Below are positions 28,201 to 55,667 of a stretch of DNA of 58,586 bases, in pieces; position 1 is the stretch's first letter; each line of letters starts with the position of its first letter. Origin of the DNA: a virus. Lineage: Duplodnaviria > Caudoviricetes. A program made the position numbers and the translations under genes. The stretch covers positions 1-58,586 of IMG/VR virus record IMGVR_UViG_3300036770_003690, one strand, 5' to 3'. The notes beneath the pieces are model-generated. The model was not told the origin of the DNA and searched no databases. It saw nothing but the letters and a program-made list of their open reading frames with translations.

Positions 28201-31200
28201 GCTGTGTCCCTCTTACACTTATCCATTACAGCAGCAAAGTCGAACGCAGAGAATGCTGGTTCATTAACAGCATCGGTAAATGCTAGTCCAACAATAACAT
28301 CCTTATTGAGTTGAATTAGACGATAAGCATCATAGAATCTTGATCTTTCGTTCTCTTCCGCATCACCTGGGAAGAAGAATGTATCATAAGCATCATATCC
28401 AACAGCAATCTCACCGATAGATCTATCAATGATTTCTTGTCTGTTCTGCTGAATGAGACGGTATGAATCGAAGAATCTATACTGCTCATCATCTCTTTCA
28501 TCAAATCCTGGGTTGATTGTTGGTAGTGAAGTTGTAGTTCCAAGACCAACAGCAACGGTAGCAATTCCTACGAGGTTCTCAATGAGTGCCTGAACATCAG
28601 CACAGGATTCTGGGCTTCTGTTATCATCAGTGAGATAATCTGGAGAAATTGTAAGATCTTGTGAATTGAGTTGGTTAGTTACTGCTGCTCTGGAGAGATC
28701 TCCAAAAGCAGTAAATGCGGTAACTGATTCTGATTCTTCACCGAGGAGACCATCAGAAATTGGGTTTCCAAGGGCATCGAAGTAGCTTAGAGCAAATCCT
28801 ACGGTATTCTTGTTTCCACCAGTCCATACGTCCTCTGCGAGGGCAAAGTGGAGGAATCCAAGGTCTCTAGCACACTTGAATCCACCTGGGGAACTGGTAG
28901 TTCCGATACCTGACTGGTTAAAGTATCCTTCATTTACAGCAGGTAGATTTGTGGTAGTTCCAAGTCCAACAGCAGTTGTGGTAATACCGATGAGGTTATC
29001 AATTTCATCCTGAACATCTTGGCAAGCATTAGGATTACCAGAGAGTAGAACAGGTTCTGAAGTTCCTACACCAGCATAAACTGCTGTACCTGAAGAAATG
29101 CCTACATCCTTACGGTTTAGTTGGTTAGTAATTGCCTTCTTAGCATAATCTCCAGCAGCACCGAATGCTACAACTGAAGGTGCTTCTTCTCCAAGTAATC
29201 CTTCAGCAGTTGGATTACCATTCTCATCAAAGTAGAAGAGTGAGAAGTCAACTGAGTAACTGTTACCACCAGTAAATACGTCAGTAGCAACGGCATCTAC
29301 CAAGTATCCAAGGTCTCTAGCACACTTAACACCACCTGGGGAAGTTGTTCCGAGACTGATTGTATTGAGAGTTAACTTGGTGAATGGATCAGTGTTGATT
29401 ACGAAGTTACCAAGATTGAGTGAAGAACCTGATGGTAGAGTTGTAGTGGTTCCAAGACCAACAGCAACGGTTACGATACCAACAAGGTTTTCAATGTTTG
29501 CCTGAACGTCGATACAAGCATTAGGATTACCAGACTTAAGAACTGGGATTGAAGTTCCTGCTCCAGCATATGATGCCTTACCTGAAGAAATTCCTACGTC
29601 CTTAGCATTGAGTTGGTTAGTTACTGCTCTCTGCATATAATCAGCAGCAGCAGAGAAGGCAACAAGTGATTGTGCCTCTTCACCAACTAATCCATTAGAG
29701 ATTGGAATACCAGCACCATCGAAGTATTGGAGAACAAACTCTCTTGCATAGCTGTTACCACCAACGAATACGTCAGTAGATACGGCATCTACAAGGAAAC
29801 CAATGTCTCTAGCACACTTAAATCCCCCTGGGGAACTTGTAGTTCCAACACCAGATTGTGCGAAGTATCCAAGGTTAATATCTGAAGTTACATCTCCAGC
29901 AGTGGCCTCAGTTCCAAGTCCGACAACTGAAGTAACAATACCGATAAGTGTATCAATGTTATCTTGAACGTCAAGGCAAGCAGCAGCATTTCCTGAAGGA
30001 AGAACTGGGATTGAAGATCCTGCTCCAGCATATGATGCCTTACCTGAAGAAATACCTACATCCTTAACATAAAGTTGGTTGGTAATCGCATCCTTCATAT
30101 ACTCACCAGCAGCAACGAATGCTGTGAATGAAGGACCTTCTTCTTCATAAAGACCGTCAGAGATTGGATTACCATTCTCATCAAAGTACTGAAGAATGAA
30201 TTCTCTTGAGTAGTTATTACCACCAGTGAATACGTCAGTAGAAACAGCATCTACAAGGAAACCTACGTCTCTAGCACACTTAATTCCACCTGGAGAATAA
30301 GTGCTAACTCCAAGAGTAAGATTAAACTCACCTACATCAAGAGTATTTGTTTGTGATGGTAGGAATCCGATAGTTCCGAGTCCAACAGCAACAGTAACGA
30401 TACCTACAAGAGTATCAATACTATCCTGAACATCAAGGCAAGCAGAGGCATTTCCTGATCTGAGAACTGGAACTGAAGTACCAGCACCAGCATAGTATGC
30501 CTTACCTGAAGAAATGCCAACATCCTTATTAAAGAGTTGGTTGGTAATCGCATCCTTCATATATTCACCAGCACTTTCAAATGCTACAATAGAAGGACCT
30601 TCTTCACCGAGAAGACCATTAATAATTGGAGCAGCATTTTCAAAATACTGAAGTGCAAATCCATCTGAATAGTAGTTACCTGCGGTAAACAAGTCAGTTG
30701 AAATTGCATCAATGAAGAATCCAAGATCTCTTGCACACTTAAATCCACCTGGGGAACTAGTAGTTCCAACACCAGCAATTGATGGACTAAAGTAACCATA
30801 ATTAATTTCTAAAGTTACATCAGCAGCAGTAGCAGTGGTTCCAAGACCAACAACTGAAGTAACAATTCCAATCAGAGTATCAATGTTATCTTGAACGTCA
30901 AGGCAAGAAGCAGCATTACCTGAAGGAAGAACAGCAATGGAAGTACCAGCACCAGCATAGTATGCCTTACCTGAAGAAATACCTACATCTTTGGTGTTAA
31001 GTTGGTTGGTAATCGCATCCTTCATTAATTCACCAGCAGTGATGAATCCATAAAGGGATTGAAGTTCTTCTTCATAAAGACCTTCAAGAATTGGTTCACC
31101 AGTTCCATCATCAAAGTATTCAAGAATAAATTCTCTTGAATATACATTACCACCAGTAAATATGTCAGTGGAAACAGAGTCTACAAGGAAACCAATGTCT

Positions 31201-34013
31201 CTAGCACACTTGAATCCACCAGGAGTGCTAGTAGTTCCAATTCCTGTCTGAGCAAAGAATCCTACGTTTCTTGTAGAAGCAAAGTTTGCAGTAGTTTCAT
31301 TAGTAATAGCAGTTGTAACAATTGCTACGAGGTTCTCAATGTTTGTCTGAACGTCAGCACAAGCAGCAGTATCAGTATTTGAAGAAGCACCAGTAGAAGT
31401 AGTAATACCCAAATCTTTAACAGTAAGATTATTGGTGATTGCCAACTTCATTCTGTCTCTAGCATAATTAAATGCGTAAACAGATTGTACTTCTTCACCT
31501 TCAATTGAAGTTGAAGTAATTGATCCATTTGCAAAATACTGAAGAGTAAAGTCTTGTGCGTAAGAGTTACCACCAGTAAGAATATCTGTTGAGATTGCAT
31601 CAATGAAGAAACCAAGGTCTCTCCTACACTTAACTTCAGCAAAGTTTAGTGAAGCACCAAAGTTATTTCTAGTAGCAGTCCAAGTCTCATTTACAATCTG
31701 CTCTTTGTTCTTCTGAATCAGACGATAAGCATCGTAGTATCTTGATCTTGCGTTAGTTACTTCATCTCCGGGGAATACCCAATCAGTTGGATATTGATCG
31801 TAATTAAGAACAATACCACCGATAGACTTATCAATAATCTCTTGTCTATTCTGTTGAATTAGACGATATGAATCATAGAATCTTGATCTCTCATTGGTTT
31901 GAGCATCATCTGGGAAGTAGAAATCAGGATATGAAATTGAAATAGAAGCAAGTGACTTGTCAATAATCTCTTGTCTATTTTGTTGGATTAGACGGTATGA
32001 GTCGTAGAATCTTGATCTTGCTGTAGTCTGGTCATCTCCAGGGAAGAAGAAGTCTGGGTTATCAATCGCAATCGCAGCAAGTGACTTATCTACGATTTCT
32101 TGCTTGTTTAACTGAATGAGACGATATGAATCAAAGAATCTTGATCTTTCATTAGTCTCCTCATCACCTGGGAAGAAGAATTGATCATAGTTAAGAGCAA
32201 TCGCAGCAAGTGATTTATCAACAACTTCTTGCTTGTTTTGATTAATTAAACGATAAGCATCATAGAATCTTGATCTTGGGTTAGTTTCTTGATCACCTGG
32301 GAAGAAGAAATCTGGATATAAATCATAGTTAAGTGAGATAGCAGCAAGTGACTTATCTACAATTTCTTGCTTGTTCTCAAGAATTAAACGGTATGAATCA
32401 AAGAATCTTGATCTCTCATTGGTTTGAGCATCATCTGGGAAGTAGAAATCAGGGTGATATAAAGAAATAGTGGCAAGTGATTTATCAATTAACTCATCCT
32501 TATTAGCATTAATTAGATTGTATGAATCTTTGAATCTATTTCTGCTTGAATCTGGGAAGTAGAAATCGGGATGATCAATTGAAATAGAAGCAAGTGAACG
32601 GTCAATGATTTCCTGTCTGTTCTGCTGAATCAGTCTGTAAGAATCAAAGAATCTTGATCTTGCGTTTGTTTGCTGATCATTTGGGAAATAGAAATCAGGA
32701 TGATCTACAGCAATTTGAGCAAGTGAACGGTCAATGATTTCTTGCTTATTCTGCTGAATTAGTCTATATGAATCATAGAATCTTGAAGATGAATTAGTCT
32801 GATCTTCTCCAGGGAAGAAAAAGTCTGGATGATTAAAGGCAATAGCAGCAAGTGACTTATCAAGAATCTCTGTTCTGTTTGCCTGAATAGATTCACTTGC
32901 ATCTACATATCTTCCAGGAGCAACAGTTCTTGCTTCAAATACATATCCATAATTACCTGAAGGATATTCTAATTCTATAACACCACCATCAGAATCACAA
33001 GTAAATCCAAGACCGGCAATGGTAACACCCATCCCGACAACTAATTCATGTGCTCTATCTAATACAAAAGTTGCAATTCCAGTAACATGATCATATGAAG
33101 CATCAACTACGTTCATTATAGGAGCATTTGCTTCTAAATTAATTCTTACAGTTGAAGCATCTGTCCCAGCATTTGCAGTAACAATACCAACATACTTAAG
33201 ACCTGATACACCATCGGCAACTAGTCCAAAGTCACCGAATGATGAGTTTGAGTTGGTAAGGTCGCAACCACCACCAGAATCACATCTAACACCAGTTCCA
33301 CTACAGATAGTGAAGAGTGATACGAGCTGAGCATATGCTCCATTGAACATATATGCTCCAATACCACCTGGATTAATTTGAGTATAGGAGTCAAGAACCA
33401 TTGACTTGATAGGACCAATGGCATGTTTTCCGTTAATATTAAGACCAATACTTCCTGGAATAAAGTTAGTGCAGTTCTGAATATAAGGTGATTGATCAAT
33501 ATATGGAACTACTTCAGGGTTAAATGTTACAATTGCTGCTCCTGGAGCTGCTGGTCCAATGAAGGACATTTCAGCAATATAGCATCCATTGTCCAACCAA
33601 AATAGGTCTGTTTTATTCTTAGGAGTTACAGTTACTTCTCTAAGACTATCTCCTACAACAGAAACGTTATTTGGAAGTACAATTGGGTTATCTTCTAGAT
33701 AAACTCCAGCACTAATTTTAATAACTGTTCCTGGGACAGACTCTGCGACGGCAGCTTTAATGGTTCTTTTTGCGTCTCCGAGCTTTTTGCCTGTGTTGTT
33801 GTCGTTACCATCTTGTGTTACATATAGAACATTTATTACTGTTGCTCCAGCACCGACCCTTATAATGTCAGTACCAATTCCTGGCCTTTCTCTGGCCATA
33901 TAGACTTCACCATCAAACGTATTGATGGCTATTTCGCCTAAAGGAAGATCTGATACAGTTGGAATCTTATTTGGAACTGATGATCTCTTAAATCTAATCT
34001 TAGGACTTGCCAT
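25236..34013 (-). CDS. 2925-aa virion structural protein with beta-helix-like region and 12 split repeat domains
   Basis: IRFKRS...GEIAINTFDG anchor; YVTQDGNDNN..G..RTIKAA; SPYIQNCT; 12 RFxDxYRLI-type and 12 KCxRD-type repeats; late-type TAAATA upstream. Confidence 0.8.
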   Translation of the reverse strand: MASPKIRFKRSSVPNKIPTVSDLPLGEIAINTFDGEVYMARERPGIGTDIIRVGAGATVINVLYVTQDGNDNNTGKKLGDAKRTIKAAVAESVPGTVIKISAGVYLEDNPIVLPNNVSVVGDSLREVTVTPKNKTDLFWLDNGCYIAEMSFIGPAAPGAAIVTFNPEVVPYIDQSPYIQNCTNFIPGSIGLNINGKHAIGPIKSMVLDSYTQINPGGIGAYMFNGAYAQLVSLFTICSGTGVRCDSGGGCDLTNSNSSFGDFGLVADGVSGLKYVGIVTANAGTDASTVRINLEANAPIMNVVDASYDHVTGIATFVLDRAHELVVGMGVTIAGLGFTCDSDGGVIELEYPSGNYGYVFEARTVAPGRYVDASESIQANRTEILDKSLAAIAFNHPDFFFPGEDQTNSSSRFYDSYRLIQQNKQEIIDRSLAQIAVDHPDFYFPNDQQTNARSRFFDSYRLIQQNRQEIIDRSLASISIDHPDFYFPDSSRNRFKDSYNLINANKDELIDKSLATISLYHPDFYFPDDAQTNERSRFFDSYRLILENKQEIVDKSLAAISLNYDLYPDFFFPGDQETNPRSRFYDAYRLINQNKQEVVDKSLAAIALNYDQFFFPGDEETNERSRFFDSYRLIQLNKQEIVDKSLAAIAIDNPDFFFPGDDQTTARSRFYDSYRLIQQNRQEIIDKSLASISISYPDFYFPDDAQTNERSRFYDSYRLIQQNRQEIIDKSIGGIVLNYDQYPTDWVFPGDEVTNARSRYYDAYRLIQKNKEQIVNETWTATRNNFGASLNFAEVKCRRDLGFFIDAISTDILTGGNSYAQDFTLQYFANGSITSTSIEGEEVQSVYAFNYARDRMKLAITNNLTVKDLGITTSTGASSNTDTAACADVQTNIENLVAIVTTAITNETTANFASTRNVGFFAQTGIGTTSTPGGFKCARDIGFLVDSVSTDIFTGGNVYSREFILEYFDDGTGEPILEGLYEEELQSLYGFITAGELMKDAITNQLNTKDVGISSGKAYYAGAGTSIAVLPSGNAASCLDVQDNIDTLIGIVTSVVGLGTTATAADVTLEINYGYFSPSIAGVGTTSSPGGFKCARDLGFFIDAISTDLFTAGNYYSDGFALQYFENAAPIINGLLGEEGPSIVAFESAGEYMKDAITNQLFNKDVGISSGKAYYAGAGTSVPVLRSGNASACLDVQDSIDTLVGIVTVAVGLGTIGFLPSQTNTLDVGEFNLTLGVSTYSPGGIKCARDVGFLVDAVSTDVFTGGNNYSREFILQYFDENGNPISDGLYEEEGPSFTAFVAAGEYMKDAITNQLYVKDVGISSGKASYAGAGSSIPVLPSGNAAACLDVQDNIDTLIGIVTSVVGLGTEATAGDVTSDINLGYFAQSGVGTTSSPGGFKCARDIGFLVDAVSTDVFVGGNSYAREFVLQYFDGAGIPISNGLVGEEAQSLVAFSAAADYMQRAVTNQLNAKDVGISSGKASYAGAGTSIPVLKSGNPNACIDVQANIENLVGIVTVAVGLGTTTTLPSGSSLNLGNFVINTDPFTKLTLNTISLGTTSPGGVKCARDLGYLVDAVATDVFTGGNSYSVDFSLFYFDENGNPTAEGLLGEEAPSVVAFGAAGDYAKKAITNQLNRKDVGISSGTAVYAGVGTSEPVLLSGNPNACQDVQDEIDNLIGITTTAVGLGTTTNLPAVNEGYFNQSGIGTTSSPGGFKCARDLGFLHFALAEDVWTGGNKNTVGFALSYFDALGNPISDGLLGEESESVTAFTAFGDLSRAAVTNQLNSQDLTISPDYLTDDNRSPESCADVQALIENLVGIATVAVGLGTTTSLPTINPGFDERDDEQYRFFDSYRLIQQNRQEIIDRSIGEIAVGYDAYDTFFFPGDAEENERSRFYDAYRLIQLNKDVIVGLAFTDAVNEPAFSAFDFAAVMDKCKRDTAFFIDAISLDALTGGNTYSREFTFQYFEGGSLITNGLDGEINESIFVFEAATGYMKNAITNSLVGAAYSDLTISIGGTYYNVGSDVPNTDPTACLDIQDNLDTLAGIVTVALGAGSTASLPSVTDGYFSQSVGLGTTNTPGGYKCARDVGFFIDAVSTDIFIAGNKYSQEYTLQYFDNSGAIYIDGDEVHPTVIGLVGAGEFMKDALTNQLYRKDVGISSGKAYYAGAGTSIPVLPSGNEASCLDVQDEVDNLVGIVTVALGAGSTASFSGLEYNTGIFDRTSGIGTTENPGGYKCARDLGFLVDAVSTDVFTGGNVYSRGFSEQYYNADGTPIRGGLAGEELPSLTAFESSTGLMQKAITNQLYRKDLTLSFGPSSFGGVGIVTYNASGNAETCLDVQGNIETLVGIITTVIGAGNTAALYDGSIGISSGFFYQTLGEFNQTVGFGTTAGDLVGLGTTSSPGGYKCARDIGYLVDAVSTDVFVGGNTYSIEFAKQYFDEQGNPIAPGLDVERAESVTAFDAAGDYMKRALTNQLYAKDLTLSFGPAVYGASTPDIVYNRSGNAETCQDVQDFVDNRVGIITSVIGIGTLTALDGVTVNVGGFLDQEAKCRRDIGYFVDAVSKDLENFTNANTIEATNYYFDAFGNPLSDALVGEEAETVTAFRASGDYMQLAINNQLNNKNFSLVEDPLTGSNNSPEGCQNVQDTIDSLIGIATEAIIAGTATTVAVSAASTFFTANVGAGPFPHYYTSGGTVQINAVRPFDGQVAVFDKLYYQVNKINVTNGGSGYTDTPEVTLGGPTTDWGVPAQAIATVEDGRVVSVEVVSSGRGFIVPPTVSISAPPSGGTQARVTVEMAPVYYTVSKATLPSAGVSTVTFDTQIPYEVTEGMPVYFYKQSRILAAGISFEFIGAGTDVKGALPQNGGVTKPENQTISVNGGLVVYTSTDQSGNFKIGDGLIINQNTGTISGTSYSKSLFSTLTPFILALGGE

Positions 34014-35782: not shown

Positions 35783-36301
35783 TTATTGCTTATCAAATTC
35801 AAACATACCGTGTTCTGATCCCCAAATCATTTCTTTTGTTTCAGGACAATAACCTCTATCAATTACTCTATAGGTTCTTTCTCTTAATTCAGACATAGTA
35901 AAAAGAAAGGATGTTTTTCCATTCTTTTCAACAATACAATCACATCCAATTATTCTTCCGTAATAAGTATCATCTTTCTTTATGAAAATACAATCACAAC
36001 CTTCATTTTTTTCCAAGTCTTCCTCTTTAATATTTTCTATATCTTTAAAATATAAAAACTTTCCACCATCCTTTACCTTATAGCTACTAACTACAATTTT
36101 CTCATTAATTTCTTTTACCTCCAAAACGAATTGTCTATATGGAGGTTGTTTACGAACACTATACCACTGCTCACCATATATCATACCGTTCGGCAAAAGA
36201 ACGTGCTTCAGAGAAATTTGAGAATATTGTGAAGGAAAAGAAAATGCTTGTCTTCTATTGTTAAAAGAACCAAGAAGAAATTCTTTAAATTCATCAATCA
36301 T
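35783..36301 (-). CDS. cpeT: CpcT/CpeT-family phycobiliprotein lyase
   Basis: GSFNNRRQAF..P, EQWY..PYRQ, GCD, DRGY...IWGS..G.FEF; overlaps ho1. Confidence 0.85.
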   Translation of the reverse strand: MIDEFKEFLLGSFNNRRQAFSFPSQYSQISLKHVLLPNGMIYGEQWYSVRKQPPYRQFVLEVKEINEKIVVSSYKVKDGGKFLYFKDIENIKEEDLEKNEGCDCIFIKKDDTYYGRIIGCDCIVEKNGKTSFLFTMSELRERTYRVIDRGYCPETKEMIWGSEHGMFEFDKQ

Positions 36302-36995
36302 TTTCGGTACTACCTCTCCTTTGACGACTTGTTAAACTTGAAAAAAGAACTTTTCCAATTGCTGAAATTAAATTACCTTCAACTTCCTTGAATACTTTCA
36401 TATTCAATCTAAAGGCATTATTTGCTTCAGCAATAATAGAATTTATAGTCCCTTCAGTGAAAGGAAGTGAATCTAAAGTTTTTCTATAATTATCTTTGAA
36501 CTCTTTTTCATCAGGGATATCTTTAAAGATATAAAAGTTCATACCAGAATCATCTACCTTCAAAGCCGTTTGAGCAATCTTTTTGAGTACCTGACCACCA
36601 GATAAATCACCAATATATCTTGTATAGTGATGAGCAATTAAAAGTTCTGGAAATACATCAGAAACTTCTTTTATTTTACTAACATATTCCTTACAAGAAT
36701 CAGTCTGAGTAACACTTTGTTTCCATTCAGGTCCAAAATAATACTCCAAATCTTTTTCTATAGATTCTTTGCGAAAAAGTTCTGGGAAATAAATCTGACT
36801 TAAAATTGGATGCTCTTTATGTCTATCAAACTCTTCTTCCATCGCAGAGTAGACGTGATATAAGTCAGATAGCAATTTAACATAAGATTTTTTTTCAACG
36901 ACACCCTTCAGAAAGCACGTAATAAAACCAGTGTTTTCTGCCATCGTGTGAGATTTTTTTGTTCCTTCTCTTATTTGTTTTGATAAATCGGTCAT
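36294..36995 (-). CDS. ho1: Ferredoxin-dependent heme oxygenase
   Basis: REGTKKSHTMAENTGFITCFLKG, AHHYTRYIGDLSGGQ, EANNAFRLNM. Confidence 0.95.
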   Translation of the reverse strand: MTDLSKQIREGTKKSHTMAENTGFITCFLKGVVEKKSYVKLLSDLYHVYSAMEEEFDRHKEHPILSQIYFPELFRKESIEKDLEYYFGPEWKQSVTQTDSCKEYVSKIKEVSDVFPELLIAHHYTRYIGDLSGGQVLKKIAQTALKVDDSGMNFYIFKDIPDEKEFKDNYRKTLDSLPFTEGTINSIIAEANNAFRLNMKVFKEVEGNLISAIGKVLFSSLTSRQRRGSTEND

Positions 36996-47316: not shown

Positions 47317-47390
47317 TCGGGCATAAAGGATTTGAACCTTTGACCTTCCCGCCCCAAACGGGACGCGCTACCAAACTGCGCTAATGCCCG
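47317..47390 (-). tRNA. tRNA-Pro(TGG)
   Basis: Cloverleaf; TCCCG-TT TGG GG-CGGGA. Confidence 0.93.
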
Positions 47391-47400
47391 GTATATTATA

Positions 47401-47440
47401 TATCATATCAAATGCTACATTATCATATCAAATGCTACAT
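47401..47440. repeat. Exact 20-bp tandem duplication within a promoter
   Basis: tatcatatcaaatgctacat x2; overlaps minus-strand TTGACA-N17-TATGAT (47422-47450). Confidence 0.9.
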
Positions 47441-47446
47441 TTGATG

Positions 47447-47641
47447 TCAAGTGCCATTGATAAACTTTTCATATTTATTTTGAACCTCAGAATCTACCTG
47501 ACTTAGGTTTCCCAAAGGAGGCATCCAATTTTCTTTGATTACATAATCAGCAAACCTATAAGAATAGGTTGATATTGGTATTCCTAATCTGCGAAGAGAA
47601 CTTAAAATAAATGCTCTTTGCTGAAGAATATTACTATCCAT
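47447..47641 (-). CDS. Hypothetical protein
   Basis: 64-aa ORF overlapping the upstream small ORF. Confidence 0.6.
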   Translation of the reverse strand: MDSNILQQRAFILSSLRRLGIPISTYSYRFADYVIKENWMPPLGNLSQVDSEVQNKYEKFINGT

Positions 47642-47780
47642 TGCTTAAAAATTTATTCATAGGATCTTTTTTGGATTTTACAATTTCACAAGCTCTTTTG
47701 TAAAAGGCATTATCAAGATTTCCAGATTCTTCAAAAATTTGTTTTATTTTTACCCAGTTGGCGTAAGTATGATCGTCCAT
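47634..47780 (-). CDS. Small hypothetical protein (48 aa), not in ORF track
   Basis: MDDHTYANWVKIKQIFEESGNLDNAFYKRACEIVNPKKDPMNKFLSNG*. Confidence 0.65.
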   Translation of the reverse strand: MDDHTYANWVKIKQIFEESGNLDNAFYKRACEIVKSKKDPMNKFLSNG

Positions 47781-47893
47781 TGGGTTTTATTCGTAGATAT
47801 TATTATATAATAAATCTTATATTTTCAGTGTCAACAAAATATGTTCATTTTGTAACACTGTTGAAGAAATTATTAAATTAGTATCATATAAAA

Positions 47894-47976
47894 CGGAAAG
47901 AACAGGAATCGAACCTGCGAGGGTGTTATCCCCAGCCGCTTTCAAGGCGGTGTCCTCGACCAACCGGACTCTTTCC
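47894..47976 (-). tRNA. tRNA-Ser(TGA)
   Basis: CT TGA AA loop, long variable arm, G discriminator. Confidence 0.85.
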
Positions 47977-47987
47977 AATAAAAGTCC

Positions 47988-48248
47988 TCAACGGACTTCA
48001 AAATCTAAACGACGAACTTTACGTTGTCTTCTTGCCTCCTGCCACATAATATCCTCATTTGTAAGAATATTATTTTTTTGTTTTTTATTTGGAGAGTTTA
48101 GCATGACTATTTGAGATAGGTCAAGTGCAGTAATGTTAGTGTTGTTTCTTATAGTTGCCATATTAGGACAACCACAAGAAACTGTTTTTGCTGGACGACC
48201 TTCTATTTCTTTATTGCAAGATTTACATCTGATTCGTAAATTTTCCAT
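47988..48248 (-). CDS. Small Cys-rich (zinc-ribbon-like) protein
   Basis: CKSC...CGC motifs. Confidence 0.7.
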   Translation of the reverse strand: MENLRIRCKSCNKEIEGRPAKTVSCGCPNMATIRNNTNITALDLSQIVMLNSPNKKQKNNILTNEDIMWQEARRQRKVRRLDFEVR

Positions 48249-48279
48249 AATATTCTCATATTTTTCTAATTATTTAGAA

Positions 48280-48352
48280 CTGGGGTGGCAGGGATCGAAC
48301 CTGCGACCTAGATGTTAACAGCATCCCGCTACTACCGCTGAGCTACACCCCA
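48280..48352 (-). tRNA. tRNA-Asn(GTT)
   Basis: GGATG-CT GTT AA-CATCT. Confidence 0.9.
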
Positions 48353-48353
48353 T

Positions 48354-48428
48354 TGGGAGCGAAGGGTGGAATTGAACCACCTACCCGAAGCTTATGAGAC
48401 TTCTGTGCAACCGTTACACTTCTTCGCA
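48354..48428 (-). tRNA. tRNA with CAT anticodon (Met-type, 1:72 mismatch)
   Basis: GAAGT-CT CAT AA-GCTTC; encoded CCA. Confidence 0.8.
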
Positions 48429-48432
48429 GTGA

Positions 48433-48465
48433 GACAATCATAAAGTATATATACCAGATTGTCAA
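48433..48465 (-). promoter_or_regulatory. sigma70 promoter embedded in GACAATC-N17-GATTGTC inverted repeat
   Basis: TTGACA-N17-TATGAT. Confidence 0.75.
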
Positions 48466-48466
48466 G

Positions 48467-48538
48467 TGGGAGATACTGGAATCGAACCAGTGACTGCTTG
48501 CTTGTAAGGCAAGAACTCTACCGCTGAGTTAATCTCCC
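48467..48538 (-). tRNA. tRNA-Val(TAC)
   Basis: CTTGC-CT TAC AA-GCAAG. Confidence 0.93.
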
Positions 48539-48562
48539 GATAGGTGATCTCTCAACCATCTT

Positions 48563-48591
48563 ATAATACCCTATAAGATTTAATTTGTCAA
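48563..48591 (-). promoter_or_regulatory. sigma70-type promoter upstream of tRNA-Val
   Basis: TTGACA-N17-TATTAT. Confidence 0.7.
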
Positions 48592-48606
48592 GTCCTAAGA
48601 TGAAAA

Positions 48607-48684
48607 TGGCACTCTCTGCAGGATTTGAACCTGCGACTTCTTGGTTCGTAGCCAAGCACTCTATCCAGACTGAGTTAAGAGAGC
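48607..48684 (-). tRNA. tRNA-Arg(ACG)
   Basis: CTTGG-CT ACG AA-CCAAG; CCA encoded. Confidence 0.93.
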
Positions 48685-48687
48685 ACA

Positions 48688-48761
48688 TGCCCGTGATAGG
48701 AGTCGAACCTACACTGTATGGATTCTAAGTCCACCCTCTCTACCAATTGGAGTACACGGGC
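48688..48761 (-). tRNA. tRNA-Leu(TAG), short variable region
   Basis: GTGGA-CT TAG AA-TCCAT; 74 nt. Confidence 0.85.
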
Positions 48762-48766
48762 ATAGG

Positions 48767-48838
48767 CGAAGGGCCAGAGACTTGAACTCTGATCTTTGGT
48801 TTTGGAGACCAAGATGCTACCAATTGCACCAACCCAAC
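48767..48838 (-). tRNA. tRNA-Trp(CCA)
   Basis: TTGGT-CT CCA AA-ACCAA; two U-U mismatches in the acceptor stem. Confidence 0.82.
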
Positions 48839-48841
48839 ATT

Positions 48842-48918
48842 TGGTGTCCGTGAGAGGATTTGAACCTCCAACACCTACCCCCTCAAGGTAGTGCCTCTTC
48901 CAGTTGGGCTACACGGAC
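48842..48918 (-). tRNA. tRNA-Leu(GAG), short variable region
   Basis: CTACC-TT GAG GG-GGTAG; CCA encoded. Confidence 0.85.
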
Positions 48919-48992
48919 TGGCTGGGGAACTAGGAGTCGAACCTAGATAAACACGGTCAAAGCGTGGTGTCCTGCCTTTAGACGATTCCCCA
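48919..48992 (-). tRNA. tRNA-Gln(TTG)
   Basis: CT TTG AC loop; U1-A72; CCA encoded. Confidence 0.9.
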
Positions 48993-48993
48993 T

Positions 48994-49068
48994 TGGAGTT
49001 TCAGGTCGGAATCGAACCGACGATTAGAAGTTTTGCAGACTTCCGCCTTACCACTTGGCTACTGAAAC
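48994..49068 (-). tRNA. tRNA-Cys(GCA)
   Basis: GAAGT-CT GCA AA-ACTTC; U73; CCA encoded. Confidence 0.93.
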
Positions 49069-49071
49069 AAG

Positions 49072-49143
49072 AGCCCTCAATCGGATTTGAACCAACGACC
49101 TACTCATTACTAGTGAGTTGCTCTACCACTGAGCTATAAGGGC
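49072..49143 (-). tRNA. tRNA-Thr(AGT)
   Basis: ACTCA-CT AGT AA-TGAGT. Confidence 0.88.
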
Positions 49144-49145
49144 GG

Positions 49146-49217
49146 GGTGACGTGCGGGAATCGAACCCGCATACCTGGATTCACAAACCAGTTCCTTAAC
49201 CATTAGGATAACGACAC
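49146..49217 (-). tRNA. tRNA-His(GTG)
   Basis: TT GTG AA loop; C73; the -1 base is T, not G. Confidence 0.85.
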
Positions 49218-49219
49218 AG

Positions 49220-49291
49220 TGGCTGTGGGTGGATTTGAACCACCGACGACTTCCTTATGAGAGAAGTGTTCTACCCCTGAACTACACAACC
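49220..49291 (-). tRNA. tRNA with CAT anticodon (elongator Met or Ile2)
   Basis: CTTCT-CT CAT AA-GGAAG. Confidence 0.85.
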
Positions 49292-49377
49292 TGGCGGAAG
49301 ATGTTGGGATCGAACCAACGGAGGTTTTACCCTCACGGTTTAGCAAACCGCTGCATTAACCACTCTGCCAATCTTCC
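49292..49377 (-). tRNA. tRNA-Ser(GCT)
   Basis: GCGGT-TT GCT AA-ACCGT; long variable arm; CCA encoded. Confidence 0.93.
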
Positions 49378-49381
49378 AAGT

Positions 49382-49471
49382 AGGGAGAAGGTGGAATCGA
49401 ACCACCATTGCCAAGGGACGGAATCGAACCGTCTCTGATACCGTCGTACCCACCGTCCAAGGTGCTCTCCC
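49382..49471 (-). ncRNA. tRNA-like RNA with two T-arms and no anticodon loop
   Basis: Acceptor-like GGGAGAG/TTCTCCC; two GG-TTCGATT-CC arms; 4-nt loop at the anticodon-arm position. Confidence 0.65.
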
Positions 49472-49474
49472 AAG

Positions 49475-49546
49475 TGGAACCGACAAGATTTGAACTTGTG
49501 ACCGCTCGGTTATCAGCCGAGTGCTCTACCACTGAGCTACGGTTCC
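49475..49546 (-). tRNA. tRNA-Ile(GAT)
   Basis: CTCGG-CT GAT AA-CCGAG. Confidence 0.93.
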
Positions 49547-49549
49547 AAG

Positions 49550-49623
49550 AGGGAACAATCGGATTTGAACCGATAACACCTTGATCTTCAATCAAGTGCT
49601 CTACCAATTGGAGCTATGTTCCC
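49550..49623 (-). tRNA. tRNA-Phe(GAA)
   Basis: CTTGA-TT GAA GA-TCAAG. Confidence 0.92.
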
Positions 49624-49626
49624 GAA

Positions 49627-49700
49627 TCTGAGAGGCAGGATTTGAACCTGCGACCTGAGCGTTCCAAACACCCAGCTCTACCAAACTGAGCTACTCCCAG
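49627..49700 (-). tRNA. tRNA-Pro(TGG), second divergent copy with A37
   Basis: GGGTG-TT TGG AA-CGCTC; C1-G72, A73. Confidence 0.85.
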
Positions 49701-49703
49701 ATG

Positions 49704-49830
49704 ATGGAAGGGGTATCCCACAAGGTGATGATTTAAAATCATCGGGCAGAAATCCCTTCCCAATTCCAGTTATTACTACAACATTCTTCTGCAAACTGGC
49801 AACCTCTGAAGAATGCGTGGGATTTCTCCC
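49704..49830 (-). ncRNA. Structured inter-tRNA RNA with possible pseudoknot
   Basis: AGAAATCCC/GGGATTTCT, CATTCTTC/GAAGAATG, loop CCAGTT complementary to AACTGG, GATGATTT/AAATCATC. Confidence 0.6.
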
Positions 49831-49832
49831 AA

Positions 49833-49903
49833 TTGCTCCGACTGGAATCGAACCAGCGACCAACCCCTTCGACGGAGCTGCTCTACCACTGAGCTACAGA
49901 GCG
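49833..49903 (-). ncRNA. Atypical tRNA-like RNA, anticodon undetermined
   Basis: Normal D and T arms, C1:A72 mismatch, GCTCC-GTCGAA-GGGGT with a 6-nt loop. Confidence 0.65.
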
Positions 49904-49955
49904 GTTCAGTTTATCAATACTGCCCACACACAAAACTGAATAAGTGTAGGGACGA

Positions 49956-50027
49956 CGACCCTAACGGGATTTGAACCCGTGATAATACCGTGACAGGGTA
50001 TCGTGATGACCACTTCACTATAGGGTC
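49956..50027 (-). tRNA. tRNA-Asp(GTC)
   Basis: ATACC-CT GTC AC-GGTAT; G73. Confidence 0.92.
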
Positions 50028-50031
50028 AAGG

Positions 50032-50114
50032 TGGGAGGAACAGGATTTGAACCTGTGAAGGACAGAGCCGTCTGATTTACAGTCAGATTCCTTTAACCAC
50101 TCGGAAATCCTCCC
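50032..50114 (-). tRNA. tRNA-Tyr(GTA)
   Basis: TCTGA-CT GTA AA-TCAGA; long variable region. Confidence 0.92.
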
Positions 50115-50118
50115 ACGA

Positions 50119-50193
50119 TGGGACATCTGGGATTTGAACCCAGGACTAACCGATTAAAAGTCGGATACTCTGACCTGACTGAGTTAATGTCCC
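50119..50193 (-). tRNA. tRNA-Lys(TTT)
   Basis: CT TTT AA loop. Confidence 0.92.
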
Positions 50194-50232
50194 ATTAAAA
50201 ATGTAAAGTTATTATGTGTGGAAAATATTCAG

Positions 50233-50327
50233 TTGTCGATGTTCGGTGTGGTCTCTCGACCACTTGATTAGAATACCACCGTTTGGTCTCTTGGGGAGTA
50301 GGTGGTGGACACTTGTGAAACCGTCAC
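50233..50327 (-). promoter_or_regulatory. Putative promoter lacking -35 (palindrome + extended -10), followed by a hairpin and boxA-like element
   Basis: GTGACGGTT-N4-AAGTGTCCAC, N29, TATTCT preceded by TGG; GTGGTC-GAGA-GACCAC; GAACATCGACAA. Confidence 0.5.
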
Positions 50328-50336
50328 AAGGCAAAG

Positions 50337-50370
50337 AAAAAGGGGAGGAAACTTTGAGTTTCTCTCCCCT
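50337..50370 (-). terminator. Intrinsic terminator of the putative attenuator
   Basis: AGGGGAG-A-GAAAC-TCAAA-GTTTC-CTCCCCT-TTTTCTTT. Confidence 0.8.
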
Positions 50371-50395
50371 GTGTGTTTTGCTTTTATGGTTGGTC

Positions 50396-50497
50396 TTACA
50401 TTTGACCTACCATACACGCAAACAGGGGAGTACCCTCAATATGCCAATAACGGCAATCAAGGAGACTAAACTGTTTTGTGGGCATTTGGTAGGTCAT
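50396..50497 (-). CDS. Putative 33-aa attenuator leader peptide
   Basis: MTYQMPTKQFSLLDCRYWHIEGTPLFACMVGQM*; between promoter (50519-50549) and terminator; overlaps the antiterminator arm. Confidence 0.65.
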   Translation of the reverse strand: MTYQMPTKQFSLLDCRYWHIEGTPLFACMVGQM

Positions 50498-50518
50498 TGT
50501 TCTAATCAATTATGTGTT

Positions 50519-50549
50519 TATTTATAAGACTTTTTTTTCAAAAAGTCAA
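50519..50549 (-). promoter_or_regulatory. Composite sigma70-type / T4 late-type promoter upstream of the leader ORF
   Basis: TTGACT-N17-TATAAA, where the -10 is part of TATAAATA; GACTTTTT/AAAAAGTC inverted repeat. Confidence 0.7.
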
Positions 50550-50550
50550 G

Positions 50551-50622
50551 AGCGGGGTATCGGAATCGAACCGACGACATCTAACTTGGAAGGATAGCGT
50601 TCTACCGCTGAACTAACCCCGC
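50551..50622 (-). tRNA. tRNA-Gly(TCC)
   Basis: CT TCC AA loop; U73. Confidence 0.92.
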
Positions 50623-50628
50623 ATTTAA

Positions 50629-50661
50629 GACAATCTTACATTATATAGTAGAGATTGTCAA
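50629..50661 (-). promoter_or_regulatory. sigma70 promoter in GACAATC-N17-GATTGTC inverted repeat
   Basis: TTGACA-N17-TAAGAT. Confidence 0.7.
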
Positions 50662-50662
50662 G

Positions 50663-50733
50663 TGGAGAATAGGAGAATCGAACTCCTAATAAGTGCTTGC
50701 AAAGCACCCGTTATACCGTTTAACTAATTCCCC
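50663..50733 (-). tRNA. tRNA-Ala(TGC)
   Basis: GGTGC-TT TGC AA-GCACT; G3:U70. Confidence 0.93.
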
Positions 50734-50810
50734 TGGCGTCTCAGGAGGGACTTGAACCCCCGACCAACTGCTTAGAAGGCAGATGCTCTATCCAACTGAG
50801 CTACTGAGAC
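50734..50810 (-). tRNA. tRNA-Arg(TCT)
   Basis: CT TCT AA loop; CCA encoded. Confidence 0.93.
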
Positions 50811-50821
50811 AAGAGATGACT

Positions 50822-50856
50822 TTGACAATCATAAGTTATTTAACCTAGATTGTCAA
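50822..50856 (-). promoter_or_regulatory. sigma70 promoter in TTGACAATC-N17-GATTGTCAA inverted repeat
   Basis: TTGACA-N17-TATGAT; TAAATA within the spacer. Confidence 0.75.
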
Positions 50857-50857
50857 G

Positions 50858-50942
50858 TAGGAACGGAGAGACTTGAACTCTCACGGGTTATTCGCCCAAC
50901 GGATTTTAAGTCCGGTGTGTCTACCAATTCCACCACGCTCCC
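50858..50942 (-). tRNA. tRNA-Leu(TAA), no intron
   Basis: CT TAA AA loop; long variable arm. Confidence 0.92.
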
Positions 50943-50965
50943 ATAAAAAGACCAAAAATGGTCAG

Positions 50966-51039
50966 TGGAAATGCCGGGGCTTGAACCCGGAACCCCAGAC
51001 TTATAAGGTCTGTGCTCTGACCAATTGAGCTACATTTCC
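50966..51039 (-). tRNA. tRNA-Ile(TAT)
   Basis: CAGAC-CT TAT AA-GTCTG. Confidence 0.88.
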
Positions 51040-51046
51040 GAAGTGA

Positions 51047-51079
51047 GACAATCATAAGGCATAACCCTGAGATTGTCAA
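51047..51079 (-). promoter_or_regulatory. sigma70 promoter in GACAATC-N17-GATTGTC inverted repeat
   Basis: TTGACA-N17-TATGAT. Confidence 0.75.
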
Positions 51080-51080
51080 G

Positions 51081-51160
51081 TGCCCCCAGTCGGATTTGAA
51101 CCGACAAGCCGAAGCGGTTGATTTTGAGTCAACTGTGTTTACCAGTTTCACCACAGGGGC
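51081..51160 (-). tRNA. tRNA-Leu(CAA)
   Basis: GTTGA-CT CAA AA-TCAAC; variable arm with UUCG loop. Confidence 0.9.
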
Positions 51161-51187
51161 AATAAAGACAATTATAATCAATTGTCA

Positions 51188-51259
51188 AGCCCCCGACTGG
51201 ATTTGAACCAGCAACCTTCTCATTACAAGTGAGATGCACTACCGTTGTGCTACAGAGGC
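51188..51259 (-). tRNA. tRNA-Thr(TGT)
   Basis: TCTCA-CT TGT AA-TGAGA. Confidence 0.92.
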
Positions 51260-51262
51260 GTA

Positions 51263-51328
51263 TTTTCAAGATTCAAGTGATCCTTCCGATCACTTATTTA
51301 GAATACCACTCTCAAGGTCAAGAGTCAA
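51263..51328 (-). promoter_or_regulatory. Promoter at the head of the tRNA array with hairpin and boxA-like sequence
   Basis: TTGACT-N17-TATTCT then TAAATA; AAGTGATC-GGAAG-GATCACTT; GAATCTTGAAAA. Confidence 0.6.
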
Positions 51329-55241: not shown

Positions 55242-55667
55242 ATGACCTGGAAATATAACAATCAAGAATTTACAGAAGCACCAAAGGGTATGGAAGGATT
55301 TGTTTATATTATTACAAATCTAACCAATAATAAAAAATATATCGGTAAGAAACATTTCTGGACTCGTCAAAAAGATCGTAAGACAGGTCGTAGAAAAACG
55401 AAAGAAAGTGATTGGCAAAAATACTTTGGATCTTGCGATGAACTAATTGAAGATGTAAAAAATCTCGGAGAAGATAAGTTTCTCCGAGAAATACTTTACT
55501 TATGTCCTCATAAGAAATCTATGAGTTTTTATGAGACTATGGAACAATTCAAAAGAGATGTAATCTTCAAAGAGGATTATTATAACACGAATGTTGAAGG
55601 TAAGTTTTTCAGTAGTGAAGTAGATAGGATTTATAATATAGTTGGAAAAAGTTTATTATTAGAATAA
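55242..55667 (+). CDS. GIY-YIG-family endonuclease
   Basis: GFVYIITNLTNNKKYIGKK, YFGS, YYN; only credible plus-strand gene. Confidence 0.8.
   Translation: MTWKYNNQEFTEAPKGMEGFVYIITNLTNNKKYIGKKHFWTRQKDRKTGRRKTKESDWQKYFGSCDELIEDVKNLGEDKFLREILYLCPHKKSMSFYETMEQFKRDVIFKEDYYNTNVEGKFFSSEVDRIYNIVGKSLLLE

Follow-up and report, generated by a model that had tools for sequence, protein, structure and literature searches.

This locus raises the question of why one phage tRNA array should be built in two different ways and should serve every amino acid except glutamate. The array occupies positions 47317–51259, minus strand, of IMG/VR virus record IMGVR_UViG_3300036770_003690. The window is the whole of this 58.6-kb partial contig and is the only sequence examined for the phage genome. 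The region holds the tRNA genes of a T4-like cyanophage, which belongs to the family Kyanoviridae if judged by its relatives. The array falls into a known class, that of the S-PM2-type tRNA regions of cyanomyoviruses, whose tRNAs are codon-compensating. The preferred reading, with a probability of about 60%, is that two kinds of module are joined here, an inherited compact block with its own head, and loose tRNA units with promoters enclosed in hairpins, and that Glu-TTC was lost from its slot in the block.

ARAGORN lists 29 genes at 47317–51259, all on the minus strand, of which 27 are canonical. The extra two are a cloverleaf with a 6-nt anticodon loop (49833–49903) and a doubtful 'Ser-cga' (49380–49456) that is not seen by Rfam. 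Rfam gives 28 tRNA matches of at least 46.5 bits, the 6-nt-loop unit counted in. Its tRNA-Sec model also has a Ser-TGA-like match at positions 47894–47977 (42.9 bits, under the cut-off of 47), which ARAGORN at -ps95 names tRNA-Ser(tga). The two programs together yield 28 canonical tRNAs for 19 amino acids in the contig, with Glu absent, plus two non-canonical tRNA-like units. An initial annotation of this DNA had arrived at the same count, with Glu as the only amino acid missing.

The genes form a central compact block with a flank on either side. The upstream flank (50550–51259) has seven tRNAs found by ARAGORN and Rfam, i.e., Thr-TGT, Leu-CAA, Ile-TAT, Leu-TAA, Arg-TCT, Ala-TGC and Gly-TCC. 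The central block, also defined by both programs, lies within 48607–50194. Its first half consists of Lys-TTT, Tyr-GTA, Asp-GTC, the 6-nt-loop tRNA, Pro-TGG, Phe-GAA, Ile-GAT and a tRNA-like unit; its second half consists of Ser-GCT, CAT, His-GTG, Thr-AGT, Cys-GCA, Gln-TTG, Leu-GAG, Trp-CCA, Leu-TAG and Arg-ACG. The downstream flank (47317–48538) has Val-TAC, CAT with Asn-GTT, an open reading frame (ORF) of 85 aa, Ser-TGA (47893–47977), two small ORFs and Pro-TGG. All three groups are on the minus strand. As the initial annotation had it, the flanks have mostly U at anticodon position 34 (U34) and the centre is rich in G34 or A34 and densely packed: U34 is found in 9 of 12 flank tRNAs vs 4 of 16 central ones (Fisher p 0.02), G34 or A34 in 10 of the 16, and 13 of 16 central junctions are only 0–3 nt. 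The other three junctions (50, 131 and 96 nt) contain odd units. Much of the central G34 excess follows from the genetic code, since NNY boxes have no U34 tRNA; for Tyr, Asp, Phe, His, Cys and Ser-AGY, G34 is the only possible type. The structural split between flank and centre is real and is conserved in relatives.

The central block and its head

The order Lys, Tyr, Asp, spacer, Glu, then Ile, Ser, Met, His, Gln, Trp, Arg-ACG is common to seven IMG/VR arrays, S-PM2 and S-CREM1, with a few tRNAs more or fewer. S-PM2 was compared through the annotation of LN828717 and S-CREM1 through OP535465; loci with L numbers are relatives from viral contigs. Except for Glu, the window has the S-PM2-type series Lys-Tyr-Asp...Ile-Ser-Met-His...Gln...Trp...Arg(ACG) with near-zero spacers. 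Gene order and alignment identify the central block with the compact block conserved among S-PM2-type cyanomyoviruses.

The promoter map separates this block from its surroundings. On the minus strand there is no TTGACA within 48592–50655 vs nine in the remainder of 47.3–51.5 kb, in agreement with the earlier remark that the central 16 have no internal TTGACA. A consensus scan finds 26 promoter-like sites against 10.8 +/- 3.3 expected, and seven of these, on the minus strand, reach 11 of 12 matches; inside 48607–50194 the minus strand has none. All predicted promoters are of host type. The central block is not promoterless, as promoter-like sites are present directly upstream of Lys-TTT.

The 355 nt upstream of Lys-TTT have 75–82% identity across relatives. 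This region displays an ordered set of elements, all on the minus strand: a small ORF, a terminator, a -10 box, a hairpin and a boxA-like 12-mer. The stretch between the two tRNA operons opens with a hairpin directly after Gly-TCC (50522–50549, fold z-score -4.6), which has TTGACT in its 5' arm, is followed by TATAAATA and is kept in relatives. We take the TATAAATA box to be the T4 late-promoter consensus. It is upstream of the small ORF of 33 codons (50396–50497), and a strong terminator-like hairpin is downstream. The ORF is conserved, as its alignment with relatives shows an in-frame indel and synonymous changes, and a 99-nt coding sequence, SCREM1_59, is annotated at the matching place before Lys-TTT in S-CREM1. 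The hairpin with a T-run resembles an intrinsic terminator (50336–50370, -22.3 kcal/mol, z -5.2); it stands ahead of the central block and is kept in six relatives. The conserved extended -10 box TGGTATTCT (50270–50278) is also found in L024, L067, L001 and L010, with variants in L064 and L069; S-CREM1 has TTGACA-17-TATCAT with TG ahead of the equivalent leader hairpin. In the window the leader hairpin, with a GAGA loop, is at positions 50248–50263 (-10.4 kcal/mol, z -3.3) and is conserved. A degenerate boxA-like 12-mer, GAACATCGACAA, is at 50233–50244. A second promoter-like site, TCGACA-17-CATAAT (50211–50239, 10 of 12 matches), is near Lys-TTT; it is partly made by an 18-nt insertion, which relatives do not have.

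According to the available text of PMC8461337, the boxA of the cyanobacterial internal transcribed spacer (ITS) has the form GAACCTTGAAAA. In two Synechococcus genomes examined here, GAACCTTGACAA is found between a spacer tRNA gene and 23S (16S-23S spacer). The 12-mer before Lys-TTT has two mismatches to the Synechococcus ITS form, and relatives have zero to two at the same aligned position. In 9 of 10 sources the 60 nt ahead of Lys-TTT contain a boxA-like 12-mer with at most two mismatches, against a random 60-nt background of 0.013. The mismatches number zero in L001, one in S-PM2, S-CREM1, L064 and L069, two in the window, L024, L067 and L010, and four in L077.

The head of the whole array has the same plan. 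Its promoter-like site, TTGACT-17-TATTCT with TG as an extended -10 (51300–51328, minus strand, 9 of 12 matches), has the TGGTATTCT box of the central block head. Between this site and Thr-TGT is a boxB-like leader hairpin (51274–51296) of -11.2 kcal/mol and z -6.2; none of 200 shuffles folds as well. A boxA-like 12-mer, GAATCTTGAAAA (51263–51274), ends 3 nt before Thr-TGT. It differs from the cyanobacterial ITS boxA (PMC8461337, available text) by one mismatch and is the sole match in the window with one mismatch or fewer. The hairpin thus lies downstream of the promoter and just upstream of boxA, the arrangement of a leader of the rRNA-operon (rrn) type.

The compact block, with its 16 tRNAs and two tRNA-like units, was probably inherited as a unit. 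It would most likely be transcribed from the conserved head as one long precursor. In the head, the terminator would act against transcription from upstream, and would be followed by the extended -10 promoter, a 5' hairpin and a putative signal resembling the boxA of host rRNA operons. RNase P, together with 3' processing, would then cut the precursor.

Hairpin-enclosed promoters at tRNA joints

The flanks have promoters of a different build. The initial annotation placed the flank tRNAs singly or in pairs behind promoter-like motifs. This is correct for most of them, but Leu-CAA, Leu-TAA and Ser-TGA are without a properly spaced promoter of their own. Val-TAC is preceded by TTGACA-17-TATTAT (48563–48591, minus strand, 11 of 12 consensus matches), and the consensus scan finds TTGACA-17-TATGAT with TG before Pro-TGG (47422–47450, minus strand). 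A 20-nt tandem duplication in the Pro-TGG promoter region (47402–47450) doubles the -10 region.

The joint motif TTGACAAT...ATTGTC occurs at five sites in the window, where 0.01 are expected. In four of the five, TTGACA and TATGAT or TAAGAT are 17 nt apart, and the bases after the -35 pair with the end of the -10 and the next four bases (z -2.2 to -5.3). The model example is between Leu-CAA and Ile-TAT (51047–51079, minus strand as are the others): TTGACAATC-N17-GATTGTC, with a -10 of TATGAT, -12.5 kcal/mol and a z-score of -4.0. The other three are between Leu-TAA and Arg-TCT (50824–50856, z -5.3), between Ala-TGC and Gly-TCC (50629–50661, -10 TAAGAT, z -4.3) and between Val-TAC and the second CAT tRNA (48433–48465, z -2.2). 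The fifth is a short hairpin, TTGACAATT..AATTGTC, directly after Thr-TGT (51167–51188, z -3.3), where the -35 and -10 stand too close together to form a promoter. The pairing is maintained there by a double change (ATT/AAT) despite the lost promoter spacing, which implies that pairing is kept for its own sake. A small hairpin with a T-run and no promoter follows Ile-TAT (50943–50964, minus strand, z -3.6).

Similar elements are widespread. A scan of viral contigs with a pattern of 16 fixed bases and any gap of 12–20 nt gives at least 118 loci. Among the matches listed, the gap between arms is exactly 17 nt in 90 of 134, and 63 of the 85 with promoter geometry are at most 20 nt upstream of a tRNA. 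The -10 box has an invariant T24 and A25 in all 52 distinct tRNA-adjacent elements among the matches listed (48 in other contigs and 4 in the window). These two bases are unpaired and are not fixed by the pattern; their invariance shows a promoter constraint beside the pairing constraint.

The least biased test is that on promoters not selected by the pattern. Where a tRNA-proximal promoter outside the pattern starts 0–1 nt after a tRNA, a strong hairpin is present in 4 of 4 cases (z -3.6 to -6.0), with compensatory changes in the arms. These are in L114 (TTGACT..AGTC), L025 (ATT..AAT), S-CAM7 and L028. The other out-of-pattern tRNA-proximal promoters, which are mostly first in their cluster, have a z-score below -2 in only 1 of 19 cases. 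S-PM2 and S-SRM01 have a shorter form in which the 3' arm is ahead of the -10. The tRNAs around the element vary. The upstream partner of Gly-TCC is Leu-TAG, Arg-TCT or Ala-TGC, depending on the contig, and that of Arg-TCT is of five kinds in relatives and Leu-TAA in the window. Such variable partners are what shuffling of cassettes would give.

The loose single or paired units would thus represent the common cyanomyovirus set, mostly U34, and may act as shuffled cassettes of the kind described for PeSL elements (an early promoter with a stem-loop). At the tRNA-tRNA joints a host-type sigma-70 promoter is predicted inside a hairpin separated by 0–1 nt from the upstream tRNA and by a few nt from the one that follows. 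If it fires, the enclosed promoter would let transcription of the downstream tRNA start separately, leaving a leader of just a few nt. The hairpin would mark where the upstream unit ends, serving as attenuator, processing mark or recombination joint. It may act in RNA (attenuation, marking of the 3' end of the upstream tRNA) or in DNA (recombination joint).

Several observations weigh against this reading of joints and heads. The sense strand folds better in only 15 of 52 elements, and the antisense strand slightly better in 37 of 52. A sense-strand RNA preference of the joint hairpins was not found, and a role at the RNA level is not favoured over one at the DNA level. Covariation of the inner stem depends on the pairing register: one register shows it weakly, with the observed count attained in 34 of 500 shuffles, and the other clearly (0 of 500). 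As no T-run follows, the stems cannot be called classic terminators. Hairpins precede Leu-CAA and Leu-TAA, yet a properly spaced promoter is absent from both. With respect to rrn boxA, the window has 11 of 12 positions at the Thr head but just 10 of 12 at the Lys leader, and relatives have zero or one mismatch in 5 of 9, all measured against a consensus that may not be that of the phage host. BoxA matches with two or fewer mismatches are not enriched across the window (12 found vs 14.2 expected). Contigs from RNA-library runs X15, X16 and X19 overlap adjoining central tRNAs (48600–48918, 49471–49614) and the Val-hairpin-CAT stretch 48354–48513, but those over the central tRNAs may be DNA carry-over or come from relatives. 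The RNA-library runs contain just 6–9% of the sampled words. As these contigs cannot reveal where transcripts start or end, or transcription itself, they are not used as evidence.

The glutamate slot, odd units and neighbouring genes

Glu-TTC follows Asp or the Asp spacer in 9 of 9 relatives that have the block (seven IMG/VR arrays, S-PM2 and S-CREM1). It is not right after Asp in the window, as it would be in the S-PM2 type. In alignment, Asp of the window is followed by a 123-nt insertion, then by a 131-nt spacer, and then by Pro-TGG where S-CREM1 has Glu; Phe-GAA is next in both. The 131-nt spacer (49702–49832, minus strand) is structured (fold z-score -2.2) and is homologous to the Asp-Glu spacer of S-CREM1. 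As a separate observation, this spacer could be a small RNA or a processing platform.

GAA is the commonest codon of the phage ORFs, with 61 per 1000, approximately 3 times the value of Synechococcus-type loci. By the logic of compensation, Glu-TTC should then rank among the most useful tRNAs. The available text of PMC3152331 states that Lys-TTT and Glu-TTC would help most and were seen only in S-PM2. Compared with the cyanomyovirus sets given there, the window has a near-complete set in which Lys-TTT is present and Glu-TTC is absent. The absence is probably due to the loss of a single gene from a conserved slot of the block. By comparison with relatives it is a lineage-specific loss, or else a relocation outside the 58.6-kb contig. 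The initial annotation had connected the missing Glu with the role of tRNA-Glu in tetrapyrrole synthesis. This idea is not borne out, as Glu-TTC is present in all nine related arrays and the window is just without that one gene. The result corrects an over-reading: a single-gene loss in one lineage is not a rule linked to tetrapyrroles.

The 123-nt insertion (49832–49954, minus strand) is specific to this lineage and consists of a 50-nt spacer and the aberrant tRNA at positions 49833–49903. A contig of independent DNA run X4 joins 49831 to 49955 and represents a variant without the insertion. The odd tRNA forms a cloverleaf (46.5 bits) with a C1-A72 mismatch, and its anticodon loop, GUCGAA, has 6 nt in place of the canonical 7. 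It has neither a UUC anticodon nor likeness to the Glu-TTC genes of relatives. That it is a decayed Glu gene was considered and rejected, as it is unlike the nine Glu-TTC genes of the related loci. Its nearest cyanophage matches are to tRNA-Arg (81%), with Arg-TCT in the S-CAM7 record. A decayed hairpin promoter in the 50-nt spacer before it is likewise unsupported (fold z-score -1.4). When viral contigs were scanned by exact pattern, neither the odd tRNA nor its spacer showed a close relative (0 matches); a degenerate pattern of the spacer end gave 12 matches, none with a tRNA, which implies chance matches. The Pro-TGG homologue in L069 likewise has a truncated anticodon loop. The 6-nt-loop tRNA and this homologue may be pseudogenes, assembly errors or odd decoders.

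The second odd unit is 96 nt (49378–49473, minus strand). It is tRNA-like: besides an acceptor-like stem it has two small hairpins and another two of T-arm-like form, both with TTCGATT loops. The ARAGORN 'Ser-cga' is a miscall on a part of it. Copies in L067, L024 and S-CREM1 are 89–92% identical, with compensatory changes. In S-CREM1 the copy is between Phe and Ile and not between Ile and Ser, which shows that it moves as a unit.

The gene content of the contig is that of a T4-like cyanophage: ribonucleotide reductase, tail lysozyme, a segE-like endonuclease, heme oxygenase, bilin reductase, CpeT, many glycosyltransferases and two giant fibre-like ORFs. The nearest named phages have just tRNA-sized pieces in common with it. 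The segE-like GIY-YIG endonuclease gene (55242–55664), one of only two plus-strand ORFs, has the lysozyme region on one side and nrdB on the other, with the tRNA array some 4 kb away. Endonuclease genes (HNH or other) adjoin tRNAs in related phages, e.g., S-WAM2. An ORF of 2924 aa (25236–34010, minus strand) has a weak match to a phycobilisome-protein domain (PF00502, E 1.2e-9, residues 758–826). Adjoining it is a 3890-aa collagen-repeat ORF (10676–22348) with a C-terminal endosialidase-chaperone domain. The pigment genes at 1311–2009 and 35783–36992 (minus strand), which encode a ferredoxin-dependent bilin reductase, CpeT and heme oxygenase, are located in the midst of some ten genes of glycosyltransferase, methyltransferase and sugar-nucleotide type (GDP-mannose dehydratase, epimerases).

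Other explanations and known systems

A further-reaching form of the preferred reading is that the array represents an undescribed two-tier system. Mobile single-tRNA cassettes with bifunctional hairpin joints would stand beside a long tRNA polycistron under a borrowed host rRNA-type boxA head, and the loss of Glu-TTC would be a recent, possibly host-dependent adjustment. This can be put forward only tentatively. If true, the hairpin would close the upstream unit and hold the next promoter, giving almost leaderless transcripts and gene-by-gene shuffling.

The split may instead be merely historical, an old inherited block beside later single cassettes, with all tRNAs being early genes of the host polymerase and no regulatory difference that matters. 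Such a history is rather unlikely, but parts of it agree with the data: the order of the block is conserved and that of the flank is shuffled among contigs, every predicted promoter is host-type, and cyanomyoviruses are thought, in the available text of PMC3152331, to use the unmodified host polymerase early in infection. On the other side, the terminator and the separate block head are kept at 75–82% identity, which argues for separate control that has been maintained.

The initial annotation proposed that the flank tRNAs are constitutive and make up for the bias to A-ending codons, and that the central ones are a conditional replacement set; on this reading the centre would take over when host tRNAs fail. 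Codon use was compared between the phage ORFs, minus two giant repeat ORFs, and seven Synechococcus-type loci, each up to approximately 20 kb, a set that may not be the host's. The G+C fraction at third codon positions is 0.18 in the phage vs 0.56–0.86 in the Synechococcus-type loci. Flank tRNAs match codons that are far commoner in the phage than in Synechococcus-type genomes; the median phage/Synechococcus-type ratio of the Watson-Crick codons is 3.57 for the flank vs 0.76 for the centre (p 0.006). Compensation by the flank is supported to this extent, but once wobble reading is counted the ratios are 1.36 and 1.03 (p 0.27) and the classes do not differ. Arg-ACG, Leu-TAG, Leu-GAG and Ser-GCT of the centre have cognate codons that are rarely used by the phage, so compensation cannot account for these tRNAs. 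The ratios for Arg-ACG (0.21), Leu-TAG (0.19) and Ser-GCT (0.51), whose codons are in heavy use in Synechococcus-type genomes, fit redundancy with host tRNAs better, and the promoter type of the centre differs from that of the flank joints; both points agree with a conditional set. The rare-codon tRNAs may also be kept as part of a complete set or ride with the block. Central Lys-TTT, Tyr, Asp, Phe and Ile, in contrast, serve amino acids that are over-used by the phage (ratios 1.5–3.0), so that these act as compensators too. The upstream flank and the central block begin alike, with the same type of promoter-hairpin-boxA-like head, and a simple division into constitutive and conditional classes does not fit this. 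That division is improbable.

Least probable is that the inverted repeats are operators for a dimeric DNA-binding protein that switches the flank tRNA promoters: the arms (TTGACAATC / GATTGTC) are strongly conserved and overlap the -35 and the start site, and folding is without sense-strand preference, but the compensatory arm changes and an arm distance that varies from 4 to 17 nt among variants (window, S-PM2, S-SRM01) fit base pairing and not a fixed protein site, the repeat is present only where a tRNA is directly upstream, and no candidate regulator was identified.

The reading of an inherited block beside loose, hairpin-jointed units can be placed among known systems. With respect to codon use, the window is like the codon-compensating tRNA sets of cyanomyoviruses in that its flank tRNAs fit the phage codon bias. 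The available text of PMC3152331 already contains the compensation idea for cyanomyovirus tRNAs; it gives the Ala of the most widespread set as GGC. Six flank tRNA types equal the Syn9 set, which is expressed during infection as determined by RT-qPCR (reverse transcription quantitative PCR; PMC11726456, available text). Phage tRNA sets are usually treated as lists of anticodons. In this array the wiring is visible as well.

The heads share their plan with the boxB-boxA leader of rRNA operons, i.e., a promoter, a hairpin, a 12-mer that is 0–2 mismatches from the host-type boxA, and then a long run of structured RNA genes. The differences are that here the plan is on phage tRNA operons and that the copies in the window are imperfect. 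The 12-mer would be a putative Nus-factor site.

The joints are compared with PeSL cassettes, which are the closest described thing to a promoter within a hairpin. In the available texts of PMC2839356 and PMC4122927, PeSL cassettes likewise pair a sigma-70-type early promoter with a stem-loop, repeated between small units of a plastic region. Neighbours are shuffled at PeSL elements, and the varied tRNA partners of the window element may reflect a similar exchange. The near-consensus TTGACA-17-TATGAT of the window agrees with the PeSL promoter. The PeSL stem-loop stands beside the promoter and was shown to terminate transcription (PMC2839356, PMC4122927, available texts), whereas the window element encloses its promoter, with the -35 in the 5' arm, the end of the -10 plus 4 nt in the 3' arm, and no T-run. 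The units in T4-type coliphages and vibriophages are ORFans; here they are tRNA genes. A term search finds 'cyanophage' in neither of the two papers and 'tRNA' not in PMC2839356, and no link of tRNAs to PeSL elements was found in the available text of PMC4122927. Hairpin-enclosed promoters at tRNA-tRNA joints and boxA-like heads on cyanophage tRNA operons were not found described in the openly searchable literature. The promoter-in-hairpin element recurs at tRNA joints in dozens of uncultured cyanophage contigs. If it works as proposed, it would explain the gain, loss and reordering of tRNAs one at a time and a separate dosing of each tRNA.

S-PM2 and S-CREM1 are the nearest in layout. In common with the window they have the block order and, ahead of Lys-TTT, the small ORF, a terminator, a hairpin and a boxA-like head, with Val-TAC, Pro-TGG and Gly-TCC nearby. 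Compared with them, the window is without Glu-TTC, and its block adds Pro-TGG, Thr-AGT, Cys-GCA, Leu-GAG and Leu-TAG. It also adds the 123-nt insertion with the aberrant tRNA and the 7-tRNA upstream operon with hairpin promoters. Both relatives are cultured and have the same layout, which makes the idea directly testable.

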